Positions 1-11,351 of a stretch of DNA of 64,000 bases are shown here, one piece after another. The position numbers were made by a program, and so were the translations under genes. The first letter of the stretch is position 1. Each line of letters opens with the position of its first letter. The notes under the pieces were generated by a model. The model had not been told where the DNA came from and made no database searches. It was given only the letters and a program-made list of their open reading frames with translations. This DNA is from an uncultured Methanosarcinaceae archaeon (GTDB lineage: Archaea > Halobacteriota > Methanosarcinia > Methanosarcinales > Methanosarcinaceae), in assembly GCA_963733675.1 (NCBI GenBank), contig CAVTET010000004.1:544001-608000 (forward strand), given 5' to 3'.

Positions 1-288
1 TCATTCAGTCTGACTTAATATTACTTATATTAATCACTCTATTTGAGATTCGAAAACAGCTTTTATGAGTAGTCCCATGAAACCATTTTTAATTTATCAA
101 AGCGAAATATATCCTAGTCAATTGTTTTTGGGACCGGATAGTCCTTTCCGAATTGATTTTATTGCAACATGATCCAGCAATTTAGAATTAACAACGAAAT
201 TAGAGAGGATTTCGATAATCTCCTAAATATTGAGATTAGATTGAGATTTTTCGCTTAGATATATTTAAAGTTTTCTTTGGTTCCAGCC

Positions 289-328
289 CTGCACCTAAAG
301 TCCTATTTTAGCTCGACTTTAGGTGCAG
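289..328. repeat. Perfect 14-bp inverted repeat (CTGCACCTAAAGTC / GACTTTAGGTGCAG) with further degenerate TTAGGTG copies downstream
   Basis: Arms at 289-302 and 315-328 read directly; similar half-sites near 336-348 and 353-364; CTTTGGTTCCA direct repeat at 275-285 and 370-380. Confidence 0.8.
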
Positions 329-555
329 AAATTAGACATTAGGTGCAAAATGTACTTTAGGTGAACAGCCTTTGGTTCCATTAATTTCGAATTTTCATCA
401 GTTCTGAGATCATTTCCAAAAATTAGAAGAATATCTAAAAATTATTTTAATGTAATGAAGTAGTTGATTATAATGACGAAAAATGACTCACACCTGGTAT
501 AATACCTTCAGTTTACTCTATATACCTCTTAATGATTTAGTATCGTTGATATAAC

Positions 556-694
556 CGATATTCTACAGATGTACACATATTTGGAATTTGTTTGCCTATT
601 TGCCAACTATTAATTTATGGAAGTTAAATTAATTTTTAAGCTGCGGTTATATTGAGAAAAGATATGGCATCCTTGTGCGCATCCGCAGAAAGTA
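556..694. mobile_element. MITE family A copy (TIR core CTGCAGATGTACACA), degenerate
   Basis: Alignable along its length with 14888-15025 and, reversed, with 6327-6460; terminal inverted repeats; no convincing ORF. Confidence 0.65.
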
Positions 695-739
695 GGATTA
701 AAGAAAGATATGGTAAAAATCAAAATTTCAGTGGCATAC

Positions 740-1030
740 CCTCATTGCAAGCAGCTGGGAATGTTCACAATGCAGCTCTGGATATAAGGAATTTATTCAG
801 AATCAAATTTTTTAATTTACTTCTATTGATACTTTCACACCATTGTTCCCTGATTTCAAATATTTTTTAATGAACCGAAGGTTGTACGATCACCAACATT
901 CCAATATAACCTCTATGACCTCCAAAGGCTAACTACACTAAATCTTTTTTGATCTCAGACCATTCTTTAAAGATTTGTCTTGCTGTGATAATTCTCATAG
1001 TATGTATCTATCATCTCCCTCGATTTCATT
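740..1030 (-). pseudogene. IS200/IS605 TnpA (Y1 transposase) remnant, 3' part
   Basis: Shares blocks (gctctggatataa..attcagaatcaaa; caccaacattccaatat) with the tnpA remnants at 46.1 and 46.9 kb; many stops; ends approximate. Confidence 0.55.
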
Positions 1031-1906
1031 AGTAATTTAGAAATCTAAATAATTCAGGAGTCTTTCAGGATTTTATAACAAAGTCTAACATTAATTCGAT
1101 ATCTTAAACAAACTTCAGAAAATATTTGAGTCAAAAAAATAAATAAACGAAAGGAATCTATAAAATTTTATTAAAAAGAGTTAAAAATGATATCTAAAAA
1201 GGGGGACTTGAACTTATTAAACATTTCATAGGTTTGTAATTTAATTAGTCAAAGATGATAATAATACGCTTAATTAAGATATAATATACTCCAATATCCA
1301 ATCAAAATAAACTTTTATTTCGTAATATTATATAAGTAGGAGTTATAATATCCTAAAAAGAACTAAAACAGAAATATTTTAGAAATAGATATTCAAGATA
1401 ATAAGTAGTTCCTATAAAATCCTCAAAAACTACTATTTGTAAGAAAAACTAATTCTATAGACTTTATATAATTTAATATATATAGTTAGATATAGTCACT
1501 GGCAAGCAAAAATTAGACTTTTATGGGTCAAAACAAAGAAAGAATGCCAGATAATTTAGCAAAAAAATGCTTAAGTTATATAACTTGAGGGGGGTATTAT
1601 AAGAAGCATTATCTGCAAACATTTCTTGAAGACTTAAGGAGTGTAGTTCAGCAAAGGATACACAAAATAAGCATGGAAGGAAAATAAATAAGGAAGGAAC
1701 ATAAATAAGCACGAAAAAACCAGACGTGCGGAGGGATAATATGTTTACCTTCAATATAAAGATGAATCAATTGTTTAATACAGCAACAGCACACGATCTA
1801 GCACTCAGATTCCATATTTAATCTTAATTACTAACAGTTAAAATTCAGTTGAGCAATTAGCACATAAAAATTACATGAGCGACAACCTAAAGGGGGGAAA
1901 ATTTAA

Positions 1907-1990
1907 ATGACTTATTTGGGTTTCAATTTTCAGTGCCTTAAAACGAAGCTTGATATGACAAGAGCCAGAGTTATTCAGAGTACGGACTGA
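1907..1990 (+). CDS. 27-aa microprotein, array copy 1 (MTYLGFNFQCLKTKLDMTRARVIQSTD)
   Basis: Translated by hand; GGGGGG RBS-like motif upstream; synonymous-biased differences to sister copies. Confidence 0.7.
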   Translation: MTYLGFNFQCLKTKLDMTRARVIQSTD

Positions 1991-2127
1991 TAAAGCTACA
2001 AAAGCCATTCAGGGAAATCAGTTTAAGAAGAGCTACCAGAAACAGAAGTTCAAACATTAACACTGATAGTATAGTTCTCAAACATAAGGAAAAAACTAAC
2101 TAGAAATACAATATGGGGGAAATTTAA

Positions 2128-2211
2128 ATGACTTATCTAGGTTTTAATTTTCAGTGCCTTAAAACGAAGCTTGATATGACAAGAGCCAGAGTAATTCAGA
2201 GTTGCGACTAA
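2128..2211 (+). CDS. 27-aa microprotein, array copy 2 (MTYLGFNFQCLKTKLDMTRARVIQSCD)
   Basis: Translated by hand; GGGGG motif upstream; TAA stop. Confidence 0.7.
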   Translation: MTYLGFNFQCLKTKLDMTRARVIQSCD

Positions 2212-2348
2212 ACCCACAAAAGCCATTGAGAAAAATCAGTGTAAGAAGAGTTACCATAAACATAAATTCAAGCCTTAACACTGAGAGAATAGCTCTCAAA
2301 CATAAAGAAATGTTGACAGAGACGCACTAAGAGACGGGGGAAATTTAA

Positions 2349-2432
2349 ATGACTTATCTAGGTTTTAATTTTCAGTGCCTTAAAACGAAGCTTGATATGA
2401 CAAGAGCCAGAGTAATTCAGAGTTGCGACTAA
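2349..2432 (+). CDS. 27-aa microprotein, array copy 3 (identical to copy 2)
   Basis: Translated by hand; GGGGG motif upstream. Confidence 0.7.
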   Translation: MTYLGFNFQCLKTKLDMTRARVIQSCD

Positions 2433-2575
2433 ACCCACAAAAGCCATTGAGAAAAATCAGTGTAAGAAAAGTTGCCAGAAACGTAAATTTAAGGCTTAAT
2501 ACTGATTGTAGACGTCTCAAACATAAGGAAAAGATGGACAGAGACGCACTAAAAGAGAGAAGGGGGAAAATTTAA

Positions 2576-2659
2576 ATGACTTATTTAGGTTTTAATTTTC
2601 AGTGCCTTAAAACGAAGCTTGATATGACAAGAGCCAGAGTCATTCAGAGTACGGACTGA
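2576..2659 (+). CDS. 27-aa microprotein, array copy 4 (same peptide as copy 1)
   Basis: Translated by hand; differs from copy 1 only at synonymous sites (Leu4 TTA, Phe6 TTT, Val22 GTC). Confidence 0.7.
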   Translation: MTYLGFNFQCLKTKLDMTRARVIQSTD

Positions 2660-2795
2660 TAAAGCTACAAAAGCCATTCAGGGAAATCAGTTTAAGAAGA
2701 GTTACTAGAAACATAAGTTCAAAGCTTAACACTGATTGTAGAGGTATGAAACATAAGGAAAGATAAATCAGAAATACAAGACGGGGGAAATTTAA

Positions 2796-2879
2796 ATGAC
2801 TTATTTAGGTTTTAATTTTCAGTGCCTTAAAACGAAGCTTGATATGACGAGAGCCAGAGTAATTCAGAGTTGCGACTAA
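2796..2879 (+). CDS. 27-aa microprotein, array copy 5 (same peptide as copy 2)
   Basis: Translated by hand; differs from copy 2 only at synonymous sites (Leu4 TTA, Thr18 ACG). Confidence 0.7.
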   Translation: MTYLGFNFQCLKTKLDMTRARVIQSCD

Positions 2880-2926
2880 ACCCACAAAAGCCATTGAGAG
2901 AAATCTATGTCAGGGATTTACTGGAA

Positions 2927-3044
2927 TAGGACTTACGCACTAGAAATATAAATTTAAGTACAATATACATTTTGATTTGAAGCATATTTCAGACAATTGA
3001 AGGTTTAATGCTATTAATTTACAAGTTTAACTGCGTGAGTCCTA
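2927..3044. mobile_element. MITE family B (118 bp, TIR TAGGACTTACGCA / TGCGTGAGTCCTA) inserted in array spacer 5
   Basis: 13-bp TIR with 1 mismatch; flanks ctggaa/caggaa resemble a target duplication; absent from spacers 1-4. Confidence 0.8.
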
Positions 3045-3136
3045 CAGGAACATAAGTTCAAAACCTAACCCTGATTTTTGACGGCTGAAGAATAAAAAGG
3101 ATAAAAAGAGATGCATTAAAAAGAGGGGGAATTTAA

Positions 3137-3220
3137 ATGGATTTGACGTTTTTTGATTCTTTGAACCTTAAAAATATTAATAATCTAAACAATGTCATTG
3201 GCCGCCAATGGGGTTACTGA
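3137..3220 (+). CDS. 27-aa microprotein, diverged array copy 6 (MDLTFFDSLNLKNINNLNNVIGRQWGY)
   Basis: Same GGGGGAATTTAAATG head, exactly the same 84-nt length, same post-stop acccacaaaa context. Confidence 0.6.
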   Translation: MDLTFFDSLNLKNINNLNNVIGRQWGY

Positions 3221-3269
3221 ACCCACAAAAACAATTGAGAGAATTTGGTGTCGACATATTTGCTAGAGA

Positions 3270-3385
3270 TACCACTTATGCATTAGTAATATAAATTAAG
3301 GTACAACTTACGTTTTAATTTGAAACATATTTCTGAAGGTTGAAGGTCAAGGCTATAATTTTCACGTTTAATTGTGTAAGTTCTA
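3270..3385. mobile_element. MITE family B, degenerate copy in array spacer 6
   Basis: Colinear with 2927-3044 (cacttatgca...tgtgtaagttcta), at the same position within the unit. Confidence 0.7.
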
Positions 3386-3479
3386 TAGAAACATAAATTT
3401 AAAATGTGACCCTGATTGTAGACGACTGAAAAATAAAGAAAAGATGAAAAGAGATACATTAAAAGAAGAGAAAATTTCA

Positions 3480-3578
3480 ATGTACTTCCTATCTCTTGAT
3501 TTTTTTGAACCTAAAAGTCATCTTGATCTGATAAAATTCAGAGTGTCATTAAGTGAGCTAAATAAGGCCAAAAATTAA
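3480..3578 (+). CDS. 32-aa microprotein, diverged array copy 7 (MYFLSLDFFEPKSHLDLIKFRVSLSELNKAKN)
   Basis: 3' part of track ORF 3372..3578; ungapped alignment to copies 1-5 with M1, L4, F8, K12, L15, D16, R21, V22, S25 identical. Confidence 0.55.
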   Translation: MYFLSLDFFEPKSHLDLIKFRVSLSELNKAKN

Positions 3579-3629
3579 CATTAAAGAAGTCAATATAAAA
3601 GTATATATAAAAATTGATCGAACGTATTC

Positions 3630-3652
3630 AGTTGCCTGCAGAGCAGGCAACT
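3630..3652 (+). terminator. 10-bp perfect hairpin downstream of the microprotein array; possible terminator or 3' stem
   Basis: AGTTGCCTGC-AGA-GCAGGCAACT followed by T-rich sequence, ~50 nt after the last ORF; function inferred. Confidence 0.4.
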
Positions 3653-3959
3653 TTAAATTTCCATTTACTATACCAGATTCGTGACACTAAAGACAACATT
3701 TATTGTAATTTGTACTTCACTAACTAGTAGTCGATAATTCCAAAAGCAGATCTACTTCTTTTAATCCATTAAACGATGATATTCGACATAACTAACTGTA
3801 TTCTGCTTCAGTAAATGGAATAATGACTCCTTAAAAATCCCCTCTAGATTGGTCTTATAAGGTTAAATTCGAATCTAAAAACTCGAGTCTACAAGCTTAA
3901 TTAAAAGTTATTTGCATCTCATAAATAAGAGGATTTCTACAGAGCCAAAAGATATAAAG

Positions 3960-4500
3960 GAATGATTCGAAATAAGATCTTTTCATTTTAGATGCTTCAT
4001 TTTCTTCCTGATTTCTCTGATTTTCAATATAGTTTTGAAAGTTCGTCGGGAGTTGTAACATTGCCAACGATTCAAATGCAACTTCAATCACCACACAGTT
4101 CGCTATTAATAACTGTTTTTCAATCTCATATTATTTTTTAAAGATCTTCCTTGCTTGATACTTTTTATAATCTACCTTACTCTTGAAGGGGGATATTTTA
4201 ATCCAGCACAAACGTAAAAATGTACATGACCAACATCATTAAAAATTGCATAGACTCAAAAAAATATATTACCAATTTCAAAGCATATAAACTTCAATAG
4301 TTGATGATGTCATTGTCTAGAAGAAATTTTTTATGATACAACATATCGAAAACCATTTGATATCCTATTTAATAGGCACGATGATTTGTATGATTTATTC
4401 CATTTTAGAGCACAAAAATAGTTTAAATATGAATCCGTGATTTAATAAAGGTTCTCTGAAAAGTTTCTATCTCCGCAGCAAGCTTCTGGATATTCAACTG
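3960..4500 (-). pseudogene. IS200/IS605 TnpA remnant
   Basis: Minus strand retains NYIENQRNQEE tail and an HVHF (HUH-like) motif; end hairpin remnant ccgcagcaagcttctgg at ~4473. Confidence 0.6.
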
Positions 4501-5000
4501 GAACCAAGATGGGAGAATAGAGTTATCAAAATAGTATGTGTCAAGTGAAAATGAATTATGACACATGAAAAATGAGTCAAGGTTACAACTTTAAGATACA
4601 AACTTCCAGTAAAATTATTCCTGAATTATGAATAAAATTCAACTAAGAAAGAAATCTAACGCTTCAAGTCAATTAATAGATACATAAACTCTAAAAATAT
4701 AATCAAAAAAATCACAACGTGGTTTATTGGCGACTATACATAATTTCTACGTCATAACCCTACAACATTGAATTTTTTAGAGAAATTTATAAAAAAATAA
4801 GATTGAGAGATATGAACCAAGTTTTTTCGTGTCACTATTGAAGGAAAAATATAATTAATAAGAGGAATCATTCTAAGCTACAACAAATCAAACCTGCCGA
4901 AAATTGAGCATCTGAAGTAATTAAAAGTTAGACAGGTCAATGAAATCGCAGCACAACTATAAGGAACAGCTAGAGATGATATATTTAAATACTTCAACCC

Positions 5001-6245
5001 TCAAGAAAACATTTTGCTAAAAATTGATGCTTTAAAATCTACCAGGAGCTTGAGCCTGTAATCCTCAAGAAGCACCTTGCGAGTGTTTTCTAGGGGAACG
5101 CTGAGAGAAATCTCTTTTGTCCGGCCATAACGACCTTTGCTTACGACCACTGCGTTGACTATTCCCAGCATATCAAGTTCAGACATCAGGTCAGTAACCC
5201 TGCGTTGTGTAAGGATATCTACGTCAATGTGATGACAGAGTTGGCGATATACATTATACATTTCTCCTGTTGTAACATTTTTACCCTCTCGGCCTCGATT
5301 TCGCAGCAAGATAATACTATATAGCACGAGTTTAGACTGCGTGGGGAGAGTCCTTACGACTTCCACTACACGATCGATTTCAATCTTTTCCTGAGCACGT
5401 CTGACATGCTCTTCAAGAACCTTGGGCTGGTCTTCCCTTTCTGCAATTTCCCCTGACACACGTAAAAGGTCCAGTGCGCGACGAGCATCACCGTGTTCCT
5501 GGGCTGCAAAAGCAGCACATAGTGGAATTACCATCTCGCCCAGTACACCATCATTGTAAGCCATTTTTGCCCTTTGTTTCAAGATGTCACTGATTTGCTC
5601 AGCATCATAAGGAGGAAAAATTAATTCCTCCTCACCCAGGGAACTTTTAACCCTTGGATCCAGAAACTCAGTGAATTTTAGATCGTTTGAGACCCCGATC
5701 ATACTCACCTTGGCTTTCTGCAAATCTGTATTAATTCTGGAAAGGTTATAGAGGACATCATCACCTTTTTTGATCAGCTTGTCGATCTCATCCAGAATTA
5801 TGATAACAACCTGCTCTCTGTAATCAATTGCTTCCTTAAACTTAGTGAAGACCTGATCAGTTGGCCAGCCAGTCATAGGAACATCTTCTTCGAACTGTCT
5901 AGCAAGATTGGCAAGTAGTCGATATTGAGTATCAATAACTTCGCAATTGATGTACACAACAGAGCAAAAAATTGATTTATCTTCACTTACCCTCTCAAGT
6001 TCCTTTCCCACATAGCGAGTAACAGCGGTCTTCCCTGTCCCTGTTTTACCATAGATCAGCACATTAGAAGGTGTTTCACCCCTTAGTGCAGAAACCAGTA
6101 TCGTTGCAAGGCCATTGATCTGCTCATTCCGGTGTAATAAAAGGTCAGGCGTGTAGGAAGGCCGAAGAACTTCTTTATTTTTAAAAATTGATTTCCCGTC
6201 AAGCAATTTTTCGAATAAGCCATCTAAAGATTGAGTTTTTATCAT
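5001..6245 (-). CDS. cdc6: Orc1/Cdc6 replication initiator
   Basis: Walker A GKTGTGKT, Walker B ILDEID, HGDARRALDLLR, winged-helix end GRYGRTKEI. Confidence 0.98.
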   Translation of the reverse strand: MIKTQSLDGLFEKLLDGKSIFKNKEVLRPSYTPDLLLHRNEQINGLATILVSALRGETPSNVLIYGKTGTGKTAVTRYVGKELERVSEDKSIFCSVVYINCEVIDTQYRLLANLARQFEEDVPMTGWPTDQVFTKFKEAIDYREQVVIIILDEIDKLIKKGDDVLYNLSRINTDLQKAKVSMIGVSNDLKFTEFLDPRVKSSLGEEELIFPPYDAEQISDILKQRAKMAYNDGVLGEMVIPLCAAFAAQEHGDARRALDLLRVSGEIAEREDQPKVLEEHVRRAQEKIEIDRVVEVVRTLPTQSKLVLYSIILLRNRGREGKNVTTGEMYNVYRQLCHHIDVDILTQRRVTDLMSELDMLGIVNAVVVSKGRYGRTKEISLSVPLENTRKVLLEDYRLKLLVDFKASIFSKMFS

Positions 6246-6326
6246 GAACGACCCTCTAAAGGTTAATGAAATAAGAGACCTAATGAATTAAGACAATTGA
6301 TTTAAATTTGATATTTATAATGTAAT

Positions 6327-6460
6327 CCATTTTCTGCAGATGTACACAAGAATGCCATTCATTTTCTCAATATGATAGCAGTTTAAAATTAATCTAACTT
6401 CCAATGAATAATAATCTGGAACATACAAACAAATTTATACATTTAAATATACAGCAGAAT
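6327..6460. mobile_element. MITE family A copy (reverse orientation) in the cdc6 upstream region
   Basis: Begins ccattttctgcagatgtacacaagaatgccatt, the reverse complement of the end of the 14888-15025 copy. Confidence 0.65.
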
Positions 6461-7264
6461 GTAAAATGTAAATAACTTATATTGAATTTTAATTAACAAT
6501 TGCCATCACAAGTTTAATTAATTGAAAATCTTGTTTAGAATTTCTTGTTTATGGGATAGGGGACTCTTCATATATTTAGGTCGATATACAGCTACTATTA
6601 ATATGTTTATTAATACATTATTTATTTGGAAAGGTATACTATCATATTTTTCAGACTCTCAGCTGCAGAATGAACCTACAAATTTTAATTTCAAATTTGC
6701 AGGATTTTTGGAAATCAAATTTCCTACAAAGATAATCTTTAAATAAATATCTTTAAACTTTACCTGCTTCCCGAAGCCATGTAAAGTCCCTTCAGACTGC
6801 CATGAATCCATAGCTATAGAATGTACTTCTTTACATAACTTTTTGTTCAAATATTTTTAGACGATGAAAATCAAATTTTTCGACAATCTAAAGTTATAGT
6901 AGCTGGGGGGATTTTGCTAAACCTCTGATTTTCACGAATTAATTATATATTATTCATAAATATATGACAAAATTGAGGAGGTTATCTAAATTCTCCTAGA
7001 ATAATACAATAGCTTTTTCTGCATGACTTTCCAATAGTTAATTTGCCACACATGGTTACTTAAAATTCATATAGTTATAACATTAGAATATATATAGGGA
7101 TGAAATGTTATACACCTTAAAGCGCTACCAGGACTTGATAAAACCCGTATTACATATTTTCTTTTATCAAATCTTTAGATGAAACTGATATATCAGCTCA
7201 TAATTTTAATCTATAATTGCAGTAGATGCAATGGAAGTACACCGTATTAATAGTTATGGTAATG

Positions 7265-7287
7265 ACCCGTCTATTTCCACTGGAAAG
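7265..7287 (-). promoter_or_regulatory. ORB (origin recognition box); candidate oriC upstream of cdc6
   Basis: Minus strand CTTTCCAGTGGAAATAGACGGGT matches archaeal ORB core TTCCAGTGGAAA plus G-string; ~1 kb upstream of cdc6 in AT-rich noncoding DNA; weaker ORB-like sites near 7396 and 8920. Confidence 0.7.
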
Positions 7288-8399
7288 CACCTTTGATTTA
7301 AAAAATTACTAAATAATCACACTCTAGAGAGAAGTAGACATATAAAATAATGGATCGTAATTCCAAAAATATTGAAAATCTAATTTAAACCTACATTTCT
7401 AATGGAAATGAATATAACATTTTTCGGTTTTATTACTCCGATTCAAAGAATAAAATTTTTTACCGAAACTATAGCTGATTTTACATAGCTCAATTTCTTT
7501 ATTTAGATTTAAAGATTTTGAGTCTTTTCTATATTATTTAGTTATTGCAGCCAATTGCTAGTGTAACTAATGGTAAATTTTTACGATCCCCGAAGATACT
7601 AACAAGTCTCAAGATTCAACACTTTATCTAGACAATCAACGTTCCGAAGGAAAATTATGTAGTCACTCACAAGGCAGTTACCTGAATAGGTACGAACCCC
7701 CTATTCCATCCATCACAGATTGACAGTTACCTTTTCCCTAAGTTCCTATGTCCTTTGTACCATCGATTTCTTCACATATTTCCCCTTTTTGGATTAAAAA
7801 GAGACAAATCGGGCTTACCAAGTGTGATATCATAAATAATTGTACGTGCCTCAGATACTATCTATATATAAGGAGGCTTCTACCCATTTGCTGCAGTGAG
7901 TAACGAACCAGACAGCTATTTTTCCTACCTACTTGTCCAAGAACTTAATTCCGATTTCGATTATTCAACTTAAGAGCCTTATCAAATTTTAAAAAATTTT
8001 CCTTCATGATATTTTCATCATGTCAAATAATCCGAATTAGACTTCTAAATTTTTCTACGCTGTCATATGAGCTTGAAATATCAGCATCAATGCCAATGCA
8101 CTTTAAAGTAGGATTACTACAAATGGGAAAAGTGACACACAAGCAATTCATAGTATAATTTATTGGCAACCCATTAAATATTTGATTTTTATGATTAAAT
8201 GTCCATCTTGATAAATGCTTTCGTTTTCACGAGTTGGAACATGTCTGCTCTAACCTCACATAAGTGCGGAATATTTAGAATAAATTAAACTATTTTTATT
8301 GCAACTTTAATATATTGTGTAGCTAGTTTCTAATATTATTCAGATAACTTGAAAATAAAGAGTATTACTTGAGTTTTTTAAATCTTAATTGAATACAAC

Positions 8400-8660
8400 A
8401 GGTATTTTAAACATAATGATTACTTCAGCTTCAGGCTTGCCTCAGAAAACTTTTTTGTTAAAATATATGGGCTCAAAAATAATACGAAGAGATTTCAATC
8501 AATTGAGAAATCAATTTTTGTAAATTGATCTACAACTGACTGCAGAAGTTTGTATTATTCGTTGAGACCAAAATCAGTAAAATTTTTCACGAGTAAAAAT
8601 TAATGTTAATATATTAAAAGGTCTCCAATGCTCAAATGCATAGGAGTTCATCGAAATTCT
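8400..8660 (-). mobile_element. IS5-family element remnant (5' end)
   Basis: Colinear with 33905-34160 and 57930-58190; ends in TIR-like gagttcatcgaaattctc. Confidence 0.65.
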
Positions 8661-9950
8661 CTTGAATTTTTTCTTTGCAATCATCACTGTACTTATTCAT
8701 TTCTGTTAGAAACTGATTTATCTCTATAGCTCATCGCTGTTTATCTTCTCTTCAATCCCATTAAGCTCTCTGAAATGAGATTACAAAAAGTGTAAACATA
8801 TTAATAAATGACGCAGGCTTTTCACCCTCACGAACTGCTATTCCTTTAGAGTCGGAAGAAATTCCATAGCTTTCATTGTTTTAGACCCCCTTTTTGGATG
8901 AGAAAGATAACATTTGTATTTGCCATTGGAAGCTACATGGAGTTAATACCCTTCTCGCTTAATTTTCATACCTACTTCATCACAATAGACAATATACTAA
9001 AATATCAACTGTTCCCTTATCATATTTTCAAATTATTCTAAATTCCAAATAAACTATCTTCCTGCTATAATTATGATAGCATAACATATGTTTGTTCACA
9101 CAAAATCATTAAAAAATTCATATAATATTTCATAGAACATAAACTAGTAGTTTTTGCAGTAATTTCTGAAGCTAAAATATTTGAACCAAACTGGATTGGA
9201 TATTTTATTGATTCAGGAAAAACAGCTTTATTTAATCCTACACTGTAAGGAAGATTCTTCATCTGGCTTCGATATTATGTGAAAATAAGATTTCGGTGAA
9301 ATATCTAAAACTTCGTCTTTTCCCATAAGCTTCAATTTCAACATCCTTACAAAAATATCCGTATTCTCCGCATTCATTCAAAGAACGATATATTAGCCAA
9401 TTAGAATCATTAACCATTTCAAAAGTCATTTTTGGATGAACTTCTTAACCTCAAGATATCCAGTCACACTTTTTGTAGCAACTCTTGGAATTAGGATTCT
9501 TTTTGACAAAAAAAATAAGTCGAAGAAGATTTGCTACTGTTATAAATGTTATGATTTTAAGCAAGATTTTTATAAGAGAAATCCTCAGTGATTTCTTCAA
9601 TTTGAGATTCAAGACTTTCATATAAGAAATAACCTTATTGTCTGAAGCACACATAGCAAGAATCTCTTCATGGTTCATCAGCAAAAAAAATAAATCATTT
9701 TACATCCAATTTTTCATCGTTCCGATGAAAAATTTTATAGTCCCTTATAGGCTATTTAATAGTTACGAAATTACTTTAAATTAATTATAAAATAATTAGT
9801 TTTGCATCAAAATATATTTTCACAGCAAAAGGTTCAAAGATGAAATAGCACTGTAGATGAGATTTACTATTAGCCATAATGTCTTAAAAATCCCATATGG
9901 CACAAAAATTAAGTACAAGGATTAATCTATAAGTAAAAGCTTAAATGTGC

Positions 9951-10023
9951 AGTCCTGTAGGGTAGTGGTCAATCCTTCGGGCCTTTGGAGCCCGGGACAG
10001 CGGTTCGAATCCGCTCAGGACTA
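9951..10023 (+). tRNA. tRNA-Gln (TTG)
   Basis: Acceptor AGTCCTG/CAGGACT, anticodon arm CGGGC-CTTTGGA-GCCCG, T-loop GGTTCGAATCC. Confidence 0.97.
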
Positions 10024-10059
10024 TAAAAATATTTATGGCAGCCAGAATCAAATATTATT

Positions 10060-10620
10060 TCTCAATTATTGTTTGCGCTATTGTCACTGTGTAAAAGTAG
10101 GGAATAGCGAGAAACCTTTTTTTCTCAAAATATATTAACTGTCTGAATATATTCAACCAAAAATGTATTCTTTCCACTACCAACCTTCTTGCCCACAATA
10201 TGATACCTCTTTTTTTCTTATGTTTTCTCTCTACGTCTCCGAATATGAGCAGCATGTCCAGAATCGTCAACCAATTATCTAATATCATGAAAATCTTATC
10301 CTTGTTCATACATATATTCTAAATTATGACATCCTTATGAGATTTTTCAACTATTATGGCATTAAGAGTTCCTTAAAAATATTTTATCATGAAGATTGGC
10401 TCCATCCAACAGAACAGAAAGTGGAATGCTTTTACTATCTGTTAACATCTTCTTTTTTGTGGCTTTTTTGCCACGATTAGTGGAATCAGCTCCTTTTCCA
10501 GTTCCACCTAATGGTACTTTTGCCATGCTATATCACTTGCTTGTCATTCCCACTATAATCCTTTGTCATTATCATCTCATTAAGACCAGCTTTACACATG
10601 TTATCAAATAATCCTGATCT
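10060..10620 (-). pseudogene. IS5-family transposase remnant (IS427/IS1031-like)
   Basis: Minus strand fragments KVPLGGTGKG..RGKKATK..IPLSVLLDGAN and RRLVVERIHFWLNIFR match motifs typical of this group; frameshifted. Confidence 0.7.
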
Positions 10621-11351
10621 TTATCATTCCTGAAATCTATCATGTATGGTACTTGGAGCTCCATAAATCACGCTTTCCATTGGCAGCCAGTAAAGAACCA
10701 GAAAAAGTGGTTTTTTTCAAGACGATCTCAATAGATCAAAAGATGGCAATTTTAAAAAATAGAACTCAAAATGATTTTCAGAAACGTACTTTCCTACCAA
10801 GAAATTGTTTGACTAGATAAAATGTCAGTCGCTTGTATCTCCATAACATACATAATTCTAAAAATATATTTCCTGGCAAATGCAGGAAGTAAATATGAAA
10901 CAAAATAAATATATGACTGAAATTATTATCCTCTAAAGGAATTCTTATCATTGGGATTCTTGATCTAAGATAGTTACTTGCAGATTAAAGATAATTTGTA
11001 GAAGATGATGCAGCACTGAATAAAACATTCGGGCCTTCTTGATGGTTATAATTTGATCCATCCAGTAAAGTAATCATAAGACAAAATTATGACATTAACG
11101 ATACAATATAATTCAGAATGTACAGACAATAAACCGACTGTGGCCACACTATAGGGGGTCAGTTTTCATTGTCAGAATCAACGACTTCATCAACTTCAGT
11201 AAGTATCTCGATTTTATTTCAACTGATAAAAATAGTCTCACAACTGGCGAGATTCATAGATACTTAATTAAGGCATAGAGCTATGTATTCTAAAAAATAC
11301 TAGCATACATATATATCCAAGTGTTAATTCAGATGTAATTATGGAGAAAAT

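Follow-up and report, generated by a model that had tools for sequence, protein, structure and literature searches.

A tandem array of 27-codon reading frames in an uncultured Methanosarcinaceae archaeon as a probable clade-specific micropeptide operon

Consecutive cistrons of 20-30 codons, each with its own ribosome-binding site (RBS), lie on one abundant transcript in the psm-alpha locus of Staphylococcus and in the aureocin A70 locus (aurABCD); they were missed by gene callers, and their products, which form amphipathic alpha-helices, leave the cell through a dedicated ABC transporter. In insects, polished rice/tarsal-less (pri/tal) gives a polycistronic mRNA with repeated 11-residue open reading frames (ORFs) that was first taken for non-coding, and pqqA is a peptide gene of roughly similar size to those considered here. 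In Methylophilaceae, pqqA is present in 3-12 copies, compared with single copies of pqqB-G, according to the available excerpt of PMC4109929. Type I toxin loci duplicated in tandem, namely ibs-sib, ldr-rdl and zor-orz, appear in the accessible portion of PMC2887945, together with the criterion of Fozo et al. for proteins below 50 aa, which demands that at least 10 of 15 residues come from I, V, L, F, C, M and A. Closest to the present case in lineage are the small proteins of Methanosarcina mazei (sP26, sP36, MtrR/MtrI), which in the studied cases covered by the available text of PMC11456600 are intracellular modulators of large complexes. The locus described here lies in a 64,000-nt stretch (hereafter the window) from an uncultured Methanosarcinaceae archaeon, positions 544,001 to 608,000 of contig CAVTET010000004.1 in assembly GCA_963733675.1. 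It carries a tandem array of nearly identical 27-codon ORFs, which is probably a clade-specific, tandemly amplified micropeptide operon, that is, a regulated polycistronic mRNA whose five cistrons encode one orphan peptide.

The array runs head to tail through window positions 1892-2905 as five units of about 221 bp, each consisting of 5-6 G, then AAA(A)TTTAA, then ATG, then a 27-codon ORF (84 nt plus stop) with the product MTYLGFNFQCLKTKLDMTRARVIQS[T/C]D. This layout had been proposed in a preliminary description of the DNA and is confirmed by the ORF coordinates and by Tandem Repeats Finder (TRF), which reports a period of 221 with 4.6 copies over 1894-2905 at 84% matches and a super-period of 447 bp as well. 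Units 1 and 4 encode MTYLGFNFQCLKTKLDMTRARVIQSTD, and units 2, 3 and 5 end in ...QSCD. The five units are as follows:

Unit 1, + strand: Shine-Dalgarno-like G-run at 1892-1897 and ORF-A copy 1 at 1907-1990, product ending ...QSTD, stop TGA and then TAA
Unit 2, + strand, 2115-2211: G-run and ORF-A copy 2 at 2128-2211, product ending ...QSCD
Unit 3, + strand, 2336-2432: G-run and ORF-A copy 3 at 2349-2432, product ending ...QSCD
Unit 4, + strand, 2562-2659: G-run and ORF-A copy 4 at 2576-2659, product ending ...QSTD
Unit 5, + strand, 2783-2879: G-run and ORF-A copy 5 at 2796-2879, product ending ...QSCD

Within the window, the ORFs vary at Leu4 (TTG/CTA/TTA), Phe6 (TTC/TTT), Thr18 (ACA/ACG) and Val22 (GTT/GTA/GTC), at codon 26 (ACG/TGC) and at the stop (TGA/TAA), exactly as first listed, with codon 26 as the sole replacement. 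None of the unit lengths (221, 221, 227, 220) is a multiple of 3, which likewise agrees with the earlier account. Units 1 and 4 are 94% similar and units 2 and 3 92% similar, a likeness that points to a recent two-unit duplication and is consistent with the 447-bp super-period. No further copy of the unit is present elsewhere in the genome to which the window belongs (own genome, G000; 3.9 Mb in 15 contigs, 92% complete), and a TRF run over the whole genome disclosed no comparable second array; the periods of most long-period repeats are multiples of 3.

The evidence that carries the interpretation is the pattern of substitution among orthologous arrays. Units were gathered with a nucleotide hidden Markov model, with no use of the translation in their choice, which brought together 12 loci with 33 complete units, 28 of these being distinct. 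Averaged over pairs, the difference amounts to 0.047 across codons 1-25, compared with 0.306 in the last 2-3 codons plus stop, 0.291 in the spacer and 0.214 in the 14 nt before ATG; by codon position it is 0.026 at the first, 0.011 at the second and 0.106 at the third. The spacers are about 6 times as divergent as the ORF and bear indels (gapped columns 42/132, against 0/75 in the ORF), so that the early remark on their far greater variability is borne out by the cross-locus alignment. No indel, stop or frameshift interrupts codons 1-25 in any of the 33 units. In the window alone, codons 2-25 hold six silent variants and no replacement variant (binomial P 6e-5, given that 19.9% of the possible single changes are silent). 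Variant alleles counted against the consensus are 14 silent and 6 replacement in frame +0, compared with 2/18, 3/17, 4/16, 10/10 and 5/15 in the five other frames. Since the pattern used in the database scans admitted only synonymous changes in codons 1-9 for at least one copy at each locus, the counts were repeated on codons 10-25, where 9 silent and 5 replacement variants were found (P = 5e-4), 10 of the 14 lying at position 3 and three of the five replacements in codon 10.

Estimates of dN and dS by the Nei-Gojobori method (NG86) give 0.018 and 0.254 for codons 1-25 (ratio 0.07), and a ratio of 0.105 for codons 10-25. The neutral yardstick was taken from four-fold sites of the neighboring cdc6 gene, own genome versus G151, one of two other Methanosarcina species genomes carrying the array (the second being G133): 141 of 179 are identical, a difference of 0.212 (38/179), and the ORF copies of the same two genomes differ by dN 0.017 and dS 0.207. 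Because substitution is neutral in rate at silent sites and about 12 times slower at replacement sites, the constraint acts on protein rather than on RNA or DNA. The remaining RNA is near neutral between window and G151 (0.13-0.34 difference). RNAalifold on 18 units gave -10.9 kcal/mol over 238 columns with compensatory change in none of 32 predicted pairs, and an Rfam search of window positions 1-10000 (E up to 1) returned no match overlapping the array. Residues 1-25 of the peptide are under purifying selection; the comparison of orthologous arrays that had been suggested as a check, with dN/dS of 0.07-0.105 and 33 units free of frameshift or stop, upholds the selection signature first noted within the window.

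Translation signals are in keeping with this pattern. The 3' end of the 16S rRNA of the own genome reads GGATCACCTCCT, and GGGGG would pair with CCUCC via one G-U pair. Among long ORFs (n = 1408), GGGGG precedes 20, mostly at 7-10 nt from ATG, and GGAGG precedes 52; in the array, the G-run lies 8-9 nt from ATG and fits the 16S 3' end in 5/5 window copies. Between the G-run and ATG stands AAATTTAAAT, which resembles an archaeal TATA box. Across loci, the G-run and ATG are conserved and the intervening bases vary (AAATTTAA, AAATTTTA, AAATAA, ACATAA); because the former are kept while the latter change, the G-run is better read as a ribosome-binding site than AAATTTAAAT as an internal TATA box.

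The array is confined to a small clade of uncultured organisms. A six-frame protein search of 59 species-level Methanosarcina genomes located the peptide in three (own, G133, G151), with six other genomes reached only at E 0.8-1.64, and when 284 genomes of the order were searched with a profile, strong matches were again limited to these three; partial hits in six others, at E 0.004-0.085, are taken as chance. A degenerate-pattern scan of 185,579 species genomes retrieved two other records only, the same scan of metagenome contigs retrieved nine contigs with the array, and viral contigs gave none. When 121 genomes sampled from the family, G133 and G151 not among them, were searched at the DNA level, the own genome alone matched. 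Wherever one contig spans the array, the core copy number is 4-5, and all loci that are long enough share one layout: leader, core units, a last core unit with an inserted element, a unit of the sixth type, a unit of the seventh type, and a hairpin. The gene order DEAD-box helicase, 93-aa ORF, divergent K+ channel and array is common to G000, G133 and G151, and cdc6 follows the array convergently in G000 and G151, the G133 contig terminating inside the array. The expectation of homologous, syntenic arrays next to cdc6 therefore holds for three of 59 genus genomes as regards the array and its upstream synteny, and for G000 and G151 only as regards cdc6. In the G151 locus (L026; G151:C9:79722-80453) and in L031, one of the further aligned loci (L031, L032, L033, L035, L037), the peptide has 28 residues, with C10 replaced by S or N and a tail ...QSTCC; single-copy variants at other loci are N10 or G10, K14N, M17K and T2N. 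As an observation apart, 3/4 ORF copies per locus in the G151/L031 lineage terminate in TAG, which in Methanosarcina is the pyrrolysine codon, and if TAG were read through in these copies the frame would run on for many codons.

Upstream of the array lie a conserved block and a leader:

1395-1506 (conserved to about 1535), + strand: promoter block, assigned on an inverted repeat, a TATA-like run and conservation
1507-1891, + strand: 5' leader of the array RNA, placed by RNA contig starts; window and G151 differ at 55/384 sites (0.143)

The TATA-like run occupies 1463-1485, and an inverted repeat, AGTAGTT (1404-1410)/AACTACT (1428-1434), encloses a first TATA-like CTATAAAAT and could be an operator, a candidate on sequence grounds (1404-1434). 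Compared with six other loci, the last two alignment bins of the block are identical at 58-59/60 and at 38/39 to 56/57 sites, and bins further upstream at 36-57/60. The stretch from about 1395 to 1535, near-invariant across seven loci and conserved well beyond neutral expectation, is the best-conserved non-coding part of the locus, and neither the block nor the leader has a second copy in the own genome. A 26-codon leader ORF (sORF-0, 1741-1821, with a GGAGGG RBS-like site) was considered as a member of the family and rejected; it is kept in closer loci, L026 has no ATG and an 11-nt deletion, and L031 has a stop, so that sORF-0 is probably not a gene.

Sequences of the array occur in RNA libraries. 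An index search found part of positions 1480-3680 in 20 public runs, seven of which are RNA libraries (peat, soil, unlabelled metagenomes), and contigs of four RNA runs, X8, X10 and X12 from one study and X20 from a second, were placed on window positions 1-7000. Metatranscriptome contigs of the first study together cover about 1507-4089. With depth being a single figure per contig and hence a poor measure of level, the contig holding leader and first ORF (1614-1923) has a mean word depth of 1086 in X8 and 1224 in X12, and an X10 contig (1721-1954) has 170. Units 5-7 and beyond have depths of 171 (2819-3981, X12), 141 (3004-3422, X8) and 93 (3393-4089, X8). On cdc6, contig depth is 44 and 40 in X12, as opposed to 22 in X8. 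Relative to the cdc6 contigs of the same runs, the leader contig is thus 25-50 times as deep, which carry-over of single-copy DNA would not account for. A contig start at 1506/1507, given by distance-to-end values at 1554 and 1560, recurs in X8 and X12, with an 8-letter adapter-like loose end in X8, about 22 nt past the end of the TATA-like run; as both runs come from one study, it is a weak hint of an RNA start near 1507. Bins of zero or near-zero depth at 703-1404 and 4213-4914 in X8, X10 and X12, and none on cdc6 in X10, are not evidence, since holes prove nothing. An AT skew of 0.24-0.32 marks the + strand as purine-rich along the array.

Taken together, these features suggest the following mechanism. 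One regulated archaeal promoter (TATA-like run at 1463-1485, start near 1507) would drive a + strand RNA of at least about 2.1-2.6 kb, in which a leader of about 400 nt precedes the five cistrons. Each cistron would be translated on its own from the Shine-Dalgarno-like G-run 8-9 nt before its ATG, and all five would yield the same soluble, mildly basic 27-residue peptide, of which residues 1-25 would form the functional part, with position 10 and the last 2-3 residues free to vary. Unequal crossing-over may have amplified the units, copy number then multiplying the peptide yield per transcript, and two later units beside or interrupted by inserted elements would be older copies drifting from use. 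The weakest step concerns what the peptide does. It may stay inside the cell and bind an abundant partner stoichiometrically and in bulk, rather than being exported or tailored; this somewhat tentative proposal, on which we would not quite lay even odds, is favored over export or tailoring because neither an export signal, an exporter nor a modifying enzyme was found, because the peptide lacks membrane character, and because, according to published abstracts, all characterized small proteins of M. mazei act in this manner. A more specific and rather doubtful extension would see a recently born orphan gene, with 4-5 cistrons, a conserved origin-side promoter and strongly represented RNA in situ, as the source of a peptide that acts in bulk as an effector specific to the habitat, such as a stress or dormancy factor titrating an abundant complex in cold, acidic, energy-poor peat. 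The original proposal of a dosage-amplified peptide cassette under purifying selection gains strength from the orthologous arrays, the RNA contigs and the promoter block.

Several points weigh against the operon interpretation and are gathered here. Translation of the five ORFs is argued from the substitution pattern. The P values are rough, since the units are not independent, coming from near-identical populations and from copies in concerted evolution, and codons 1-9 of the copies outside the window were constrained by the search pattern. One unit of the 33, in L037, has ATA instead of ATG. High depths come from one study only, and in X20 the array contigs (depth 21-43) are no deeper than cdc6 (5-23). 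The contigs are unstranded, and the + strand is proposed because of the purine skew, the promoter block and the contig that begins at 1507. They also give neither transcript ends nor proof of a single transcript; of the suggestion that the array is probably polycistronic, presence in RNA contigs and a conserved promoter block have thus been added, while the single transcript is still deduced. Moreover, RNA contigs continue past the hairpin at 3630-3652, to 3981-4089, where their ends may be assembly breaks because they coincide with a dispersed 45-nt segment (3991-4035; about 20 other genome places at 84-89% identity). The proposal of an intracellular binder, finally, is a tentative one, short of an even chance.

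Beyond the core, the locus continues with two longer units of about 341 bp, each an ordinary unit with an insert of about 118 nt in its spacer. The insert has a 13-bp terminal inverted repeat with arms TAGGACTTACGCA and TGCGTGAGTCCTA, whose mismatches are G-U compatible on the + strand, and is called MITE-like (after miniature inverted-repeat transposable elements) because it belongs to a dispersed family with 42 matches in the own genome. The features of this part are:

2926-3044, strand not assigned: MITE-like repeat, copy 1, in the unit 5 spacer, at the same place in 7/7 aligned loci; it interrupts the nhmmer unit match
3121-3220, + strand: unit 6, with its own G-run and a diverged 27-codon ORF (sORF-B, 3137-3220)
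3269-3385, strand not assigned: MITE-like repeat, copy 2, in the unit 6 spacer, at the same place in all aligned loci
3467-3578, + strand: unit 7 remnant, with a 32-codon frame (3480-3578) found only in the own genome and without a G-run
3630-3661, + strand: conserved G+C-rich hairpin followed by TTTAAATTT, a T-rich tail; possible terminator or processing site

The preliminary description counted seven microprotein genes under purifying selection; the comparison reduces these to five. The unit 6 ORF is full-length in 4/7 loci (window, L032, L033, L035), and elsewhere it has an in-frame 6-nt deletion (L026), ATA for ATG with an in-frame ATG at codon 4 (L031), or a 1-nt insertion close to its end (L037). 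Its diversity by codon position, 0.183/0.091/0.092, shows no codon phase, its dN/dS is 0.72 (four gap-free sequences), and its G-run is eroded in G151 and L031; judged by these sequences, unit 6 is most likely a decaying or relaxed copy evolving near neutrally. The unit 7 frame is broken in relatives, which have one T fewer and hence a frameshift, and L026 and L031 carry ATA for ATG.

The peptide has a net charge of +2 and a grand average of hydropathy (GRAVY) of about -0.1 to -0.2, and the tryptic peptides of the 27-mer are MTYLGFNFQCLK, LDMTR and VIQSTD or VIQSCD. Of the 33 copies, 32 have one or more Cys residues (position 10 or tail), a suggestive retention as far as sequence goes, and the variable tail (TD, CD, TCC) evolves at the spacer rate (0.306 versus 0.291). 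The peptide was not recognized at the outset, and this still holds: Pfam, NCBIfam, PADLOC and PHROGs (E up to 10; 4-5 peptides each) gave no family, a PDB profile search gave four chance-level matches only (E 0.85-1.8), an exact look-up of four peptides among about 15 billion predicted proteins found none, and a full-text literature search with three peptide fragments found no paper. Several candidate identities were tried and rejected. For a type I toxin, the best 15-residue stretch holds 7/15 hydrophobic residues against the at least 10/15 needed, with a maximum 15-residue Kyte-Doolittle mean of 0.23. For an amphipathic helix of the kind seen in phenol-soluble modulins (PSM) or leaderless bacteriocins, the best 18-residue moment of 0.18 is matched by 1912 of 2000 shuffles, and for beta-strand amphipathy a hydrophobic moment of 0.36 at 160 degrees is matched by 306 of 5000, which is not significant. 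PqqA was dismissed on the lack of Glu and hence of E-x3-Y, with pqqB-E not among the scanned ORFs; a structured non-coding RNA repeat on the lack of any compensatory pair or Rfam match on the array; and origin recognition box repeats on the conserved segment being about 100 nt long with 3-base periodic variation.

Among the rival explanations, that the repeats act as RNA or DNA with the ORFs untranslated, as a sponge or other non-coding RNA, as internal promoters (AAATTTAAAT) or as origin-binding repeats, would suit a locus beside the origin-linked cdc6 in AT-rich, ORF-poor DNA, and the RNA contigs are silent on translation. However, no binding-site or RNA model predicts neutral silent sites beside replacement sites about 12 times slower, with a 3-base period; compensatory pairs and an Rfam match are lacking; the 33 ORF copies have no indel against indel-full spacers; and in G151 and L031 the TATA-like spacer is lost (AAATAA, ACATAA) with the G-run and ATG kept, all of which makes this explanation very unlikely. 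Somewhat less improbable, although still unlikely, is a product that is processed or exported: a scaffold for a ribosomally synthesized and post-translationally modified peptide (RiPP) with enzymes elsewhere, a leaderless bacteriocin, a surfactant or a signalling peptide, the copies being needed because each precursor is used once. Multi-copy precursor genes exist, as pqqA illustrates, and the 25 conserved N-terminal residues with a varying C-terminal end, the Cys in 32/33 copies and the high contig depth, which would fit a bulk product, speak for it. No modifying enzyme, RRE-domain protein or exporter was detected in 20 window ORFs and 19 flanking ORFs, however: in these ORFs (the 20 largest non-overlapping of 44 window ORFs of at least 100 aa, and flanking ORFs of G000, G151 and G133), Pfam showed no radical-SAM, YcaO, lanthipeptide or ABC-exporter match. 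The absence of modifying enzymes and transporters remarked on earlier is thereby borne out by Pfam for the 20 largest of the 44. The variable "core" would comprise just 2-3 residues changing at the spacer rate; the peptide has no Glu, no E-x3-Y, no signature C-terminal GVY and no signal peptide-like or amphipathic-helix character, and no database match was found. The RiPP-like role floated in the first account thus loses ground.

Two further possibilities are more remote still. A type I toxin-antitoxin-like system, in which duplicated small toxin ORFs would each be curbed by antisense RNA from the same repeat, draws on tandem small ORFs with similar flanks in long intergenic regions, given as a hallmark in the accessible portion of PMC2887945, and on the palindromic AAATTTAAAT, which could serve as a promoter on either strand; the peptide nevertheless falls short in hydrophobicity (7/15 versus 10/15, Kyte-Doolittle maximum 0.23) and antisense ORFs take replacement changes, which leaves it highly improbable. 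The least probable of all, also raised in the preliminary description, is that the peptide regulates replication via Cdc6/Orc1, which would explain why G000 and G151 both retain the origin-linked cdc6 in convergent orientation to the array. Against it, the array is absent from 56/59 Methanosarcina species genomes, five of which were checked and keep a 95-96% identical cdc6; adjacency alone is weak evidence, moreover, and origin proximity also simply raises gene dosage. A translated, tandemly amplified peptide gene is the reading that we retain.

The neighboring gene serves as context only:

5001-6245, - strand: cdc6/orc1, origin-linked, convergent with the array (Pfam Cdc6_C, Cdc6_lid, AAA)

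It is regarded as the origin-linked copy because cdc6 lies about 1 kb from base 1 in two of five complete Methanosarcina genomes. In these five genomes, the 95-96% identical cdc6 is followed by unrelated genes: downstream of it there is no similarity to window positions 1-5000 except one 60-nt match (E 3e-4), there is no K+ channel gene, and among the TRF matches listed, all from the first of the five, there is no array of about 220 bp. The link with cdc6 is best read as positional only, the origin-proximal spot offering high gene dosage within a variable region rich in mobile elements. Other scanned window ORFs include FMN reductase, NikR, Ech-type hydrogenase subunits, GH57, GH15, an aminotransferase, an AAA ATPase, RFC, HypF and A-ATPase. 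The description of the surroundings as decaying and littered with insertion sequences (IS) fits the two dispersed MITE-like families, an IS240-type transposase and a split K+ channel gene. The latter, of MthK type (Ion_trans_2 + TrkA_N + TrkA_C), lies just upstream of the window (L040 12569-13615; G000:C4:542569-543615) as three ORFs (87, 128 and 114 aa) and is intact in G151 and G133 (366 and 377 aa), which points to either a pseudogene or a fault in the assembly; the IS240-type DDE transposase adjoins it at L040 11084-11722.

Further observations concern the surrounding DNA. A second dispersed repeat family, with 40 own-genome matches among those listed, is found at window 6300-6440 (+) and 585-700 (-), so that the array and cdc6 are flanked by two inverted copies whose 95-nt arms are 71% complementary; many loose RNA-contig ends in all four runs fall on it, as expected of a multi-copy expressed element. 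Upstream of cdc6, about 5 kb (6246-11351) hold no ORF of at least 100 aa and may include the replication origin; this stretch also has a sub-threshold PYLIS_5 match at 9299-9399 (-; 54.6 bits, where the gathering score is 60), a tRNA-Gln at 9951-10023 and, at 7999-8134 (-), a weak match to group II intron D1-D4. Elsewhere in the genome, an AT-rich tandem repeat at a contig start (G000:C1:1580-2531; TRF period 178, 5.4 copies, two subunits of about 88 nt per period) contains no conserved ORF, and four identical 100-nt tandem units lie on the same contig as the window (G000:C4:737485-737886).

Peat and bog Methanosarcina add to wetland methane emission, yet all that is known of their small proteome comes from M. 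mazei, a laboratory strain. The array, with its high contig depth in peat metatranscriptomes, is a candidate for a habitat-specific micropeptide function in a clade of uncultured methanogens, and would illustrate from nature how tandem amplification of cistrons raises dosage in archaea. Its core gene is invisible to gene callers, yet bears one of the cleanest purifying-selection signatures possible for 27 codons. Such loci are likely under-reported because the array breaks assemblies, the G133 contig ending inside it.

Compared with the systems described at the beginning, the locus shares architecture with several of them and identity with none. As in M. mazei, of the same genus, it comprises unannotated ORFs in the range of about 20-60 codons on abundant small or leader-bearing RNAs, whereas the M. 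mazei genes are single-copy, the words "tandem", "copies" and "paralog" being absent from the available text of PMC11456600. Unlike psm-alpha and aureocin A70, it has a helical moment at shuffle level, no exporter nearby, and copies that are near-identical rather than paralogous. It resembles multi-copy pqqA in the multiplication of a peptide gene for dosage, but the sequence is unrelated, with no Glu or E-x3-Y and no pqqB-E-like genes. Like ibs-sib, ldr-rdl and zor-orz, it places tandem small ORFs with conserved flanks in intergenic DNA, but here the peptide is not hydrophobic. Among the papers listed by searches on tandem or polycistronic small ORFs in archaea, supplementary tables lying outside the search, none was found to describe a multi-cistron array of one micropeptide; the peptide family is new, and tandem peptide cistrons as such are known in bacteria. 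With the eukaryotic pri/tal, the array has in common near-identical tiny ORFs in which conservation falls on the peptide instead of the spacers, a parallel in architecture without homology. On the rather doubtful extension to a habitat-specific effector given above, the array would be the first archaeal polycistronic gene of repeated small ORFs, with an architecture known from insect pri/tal.

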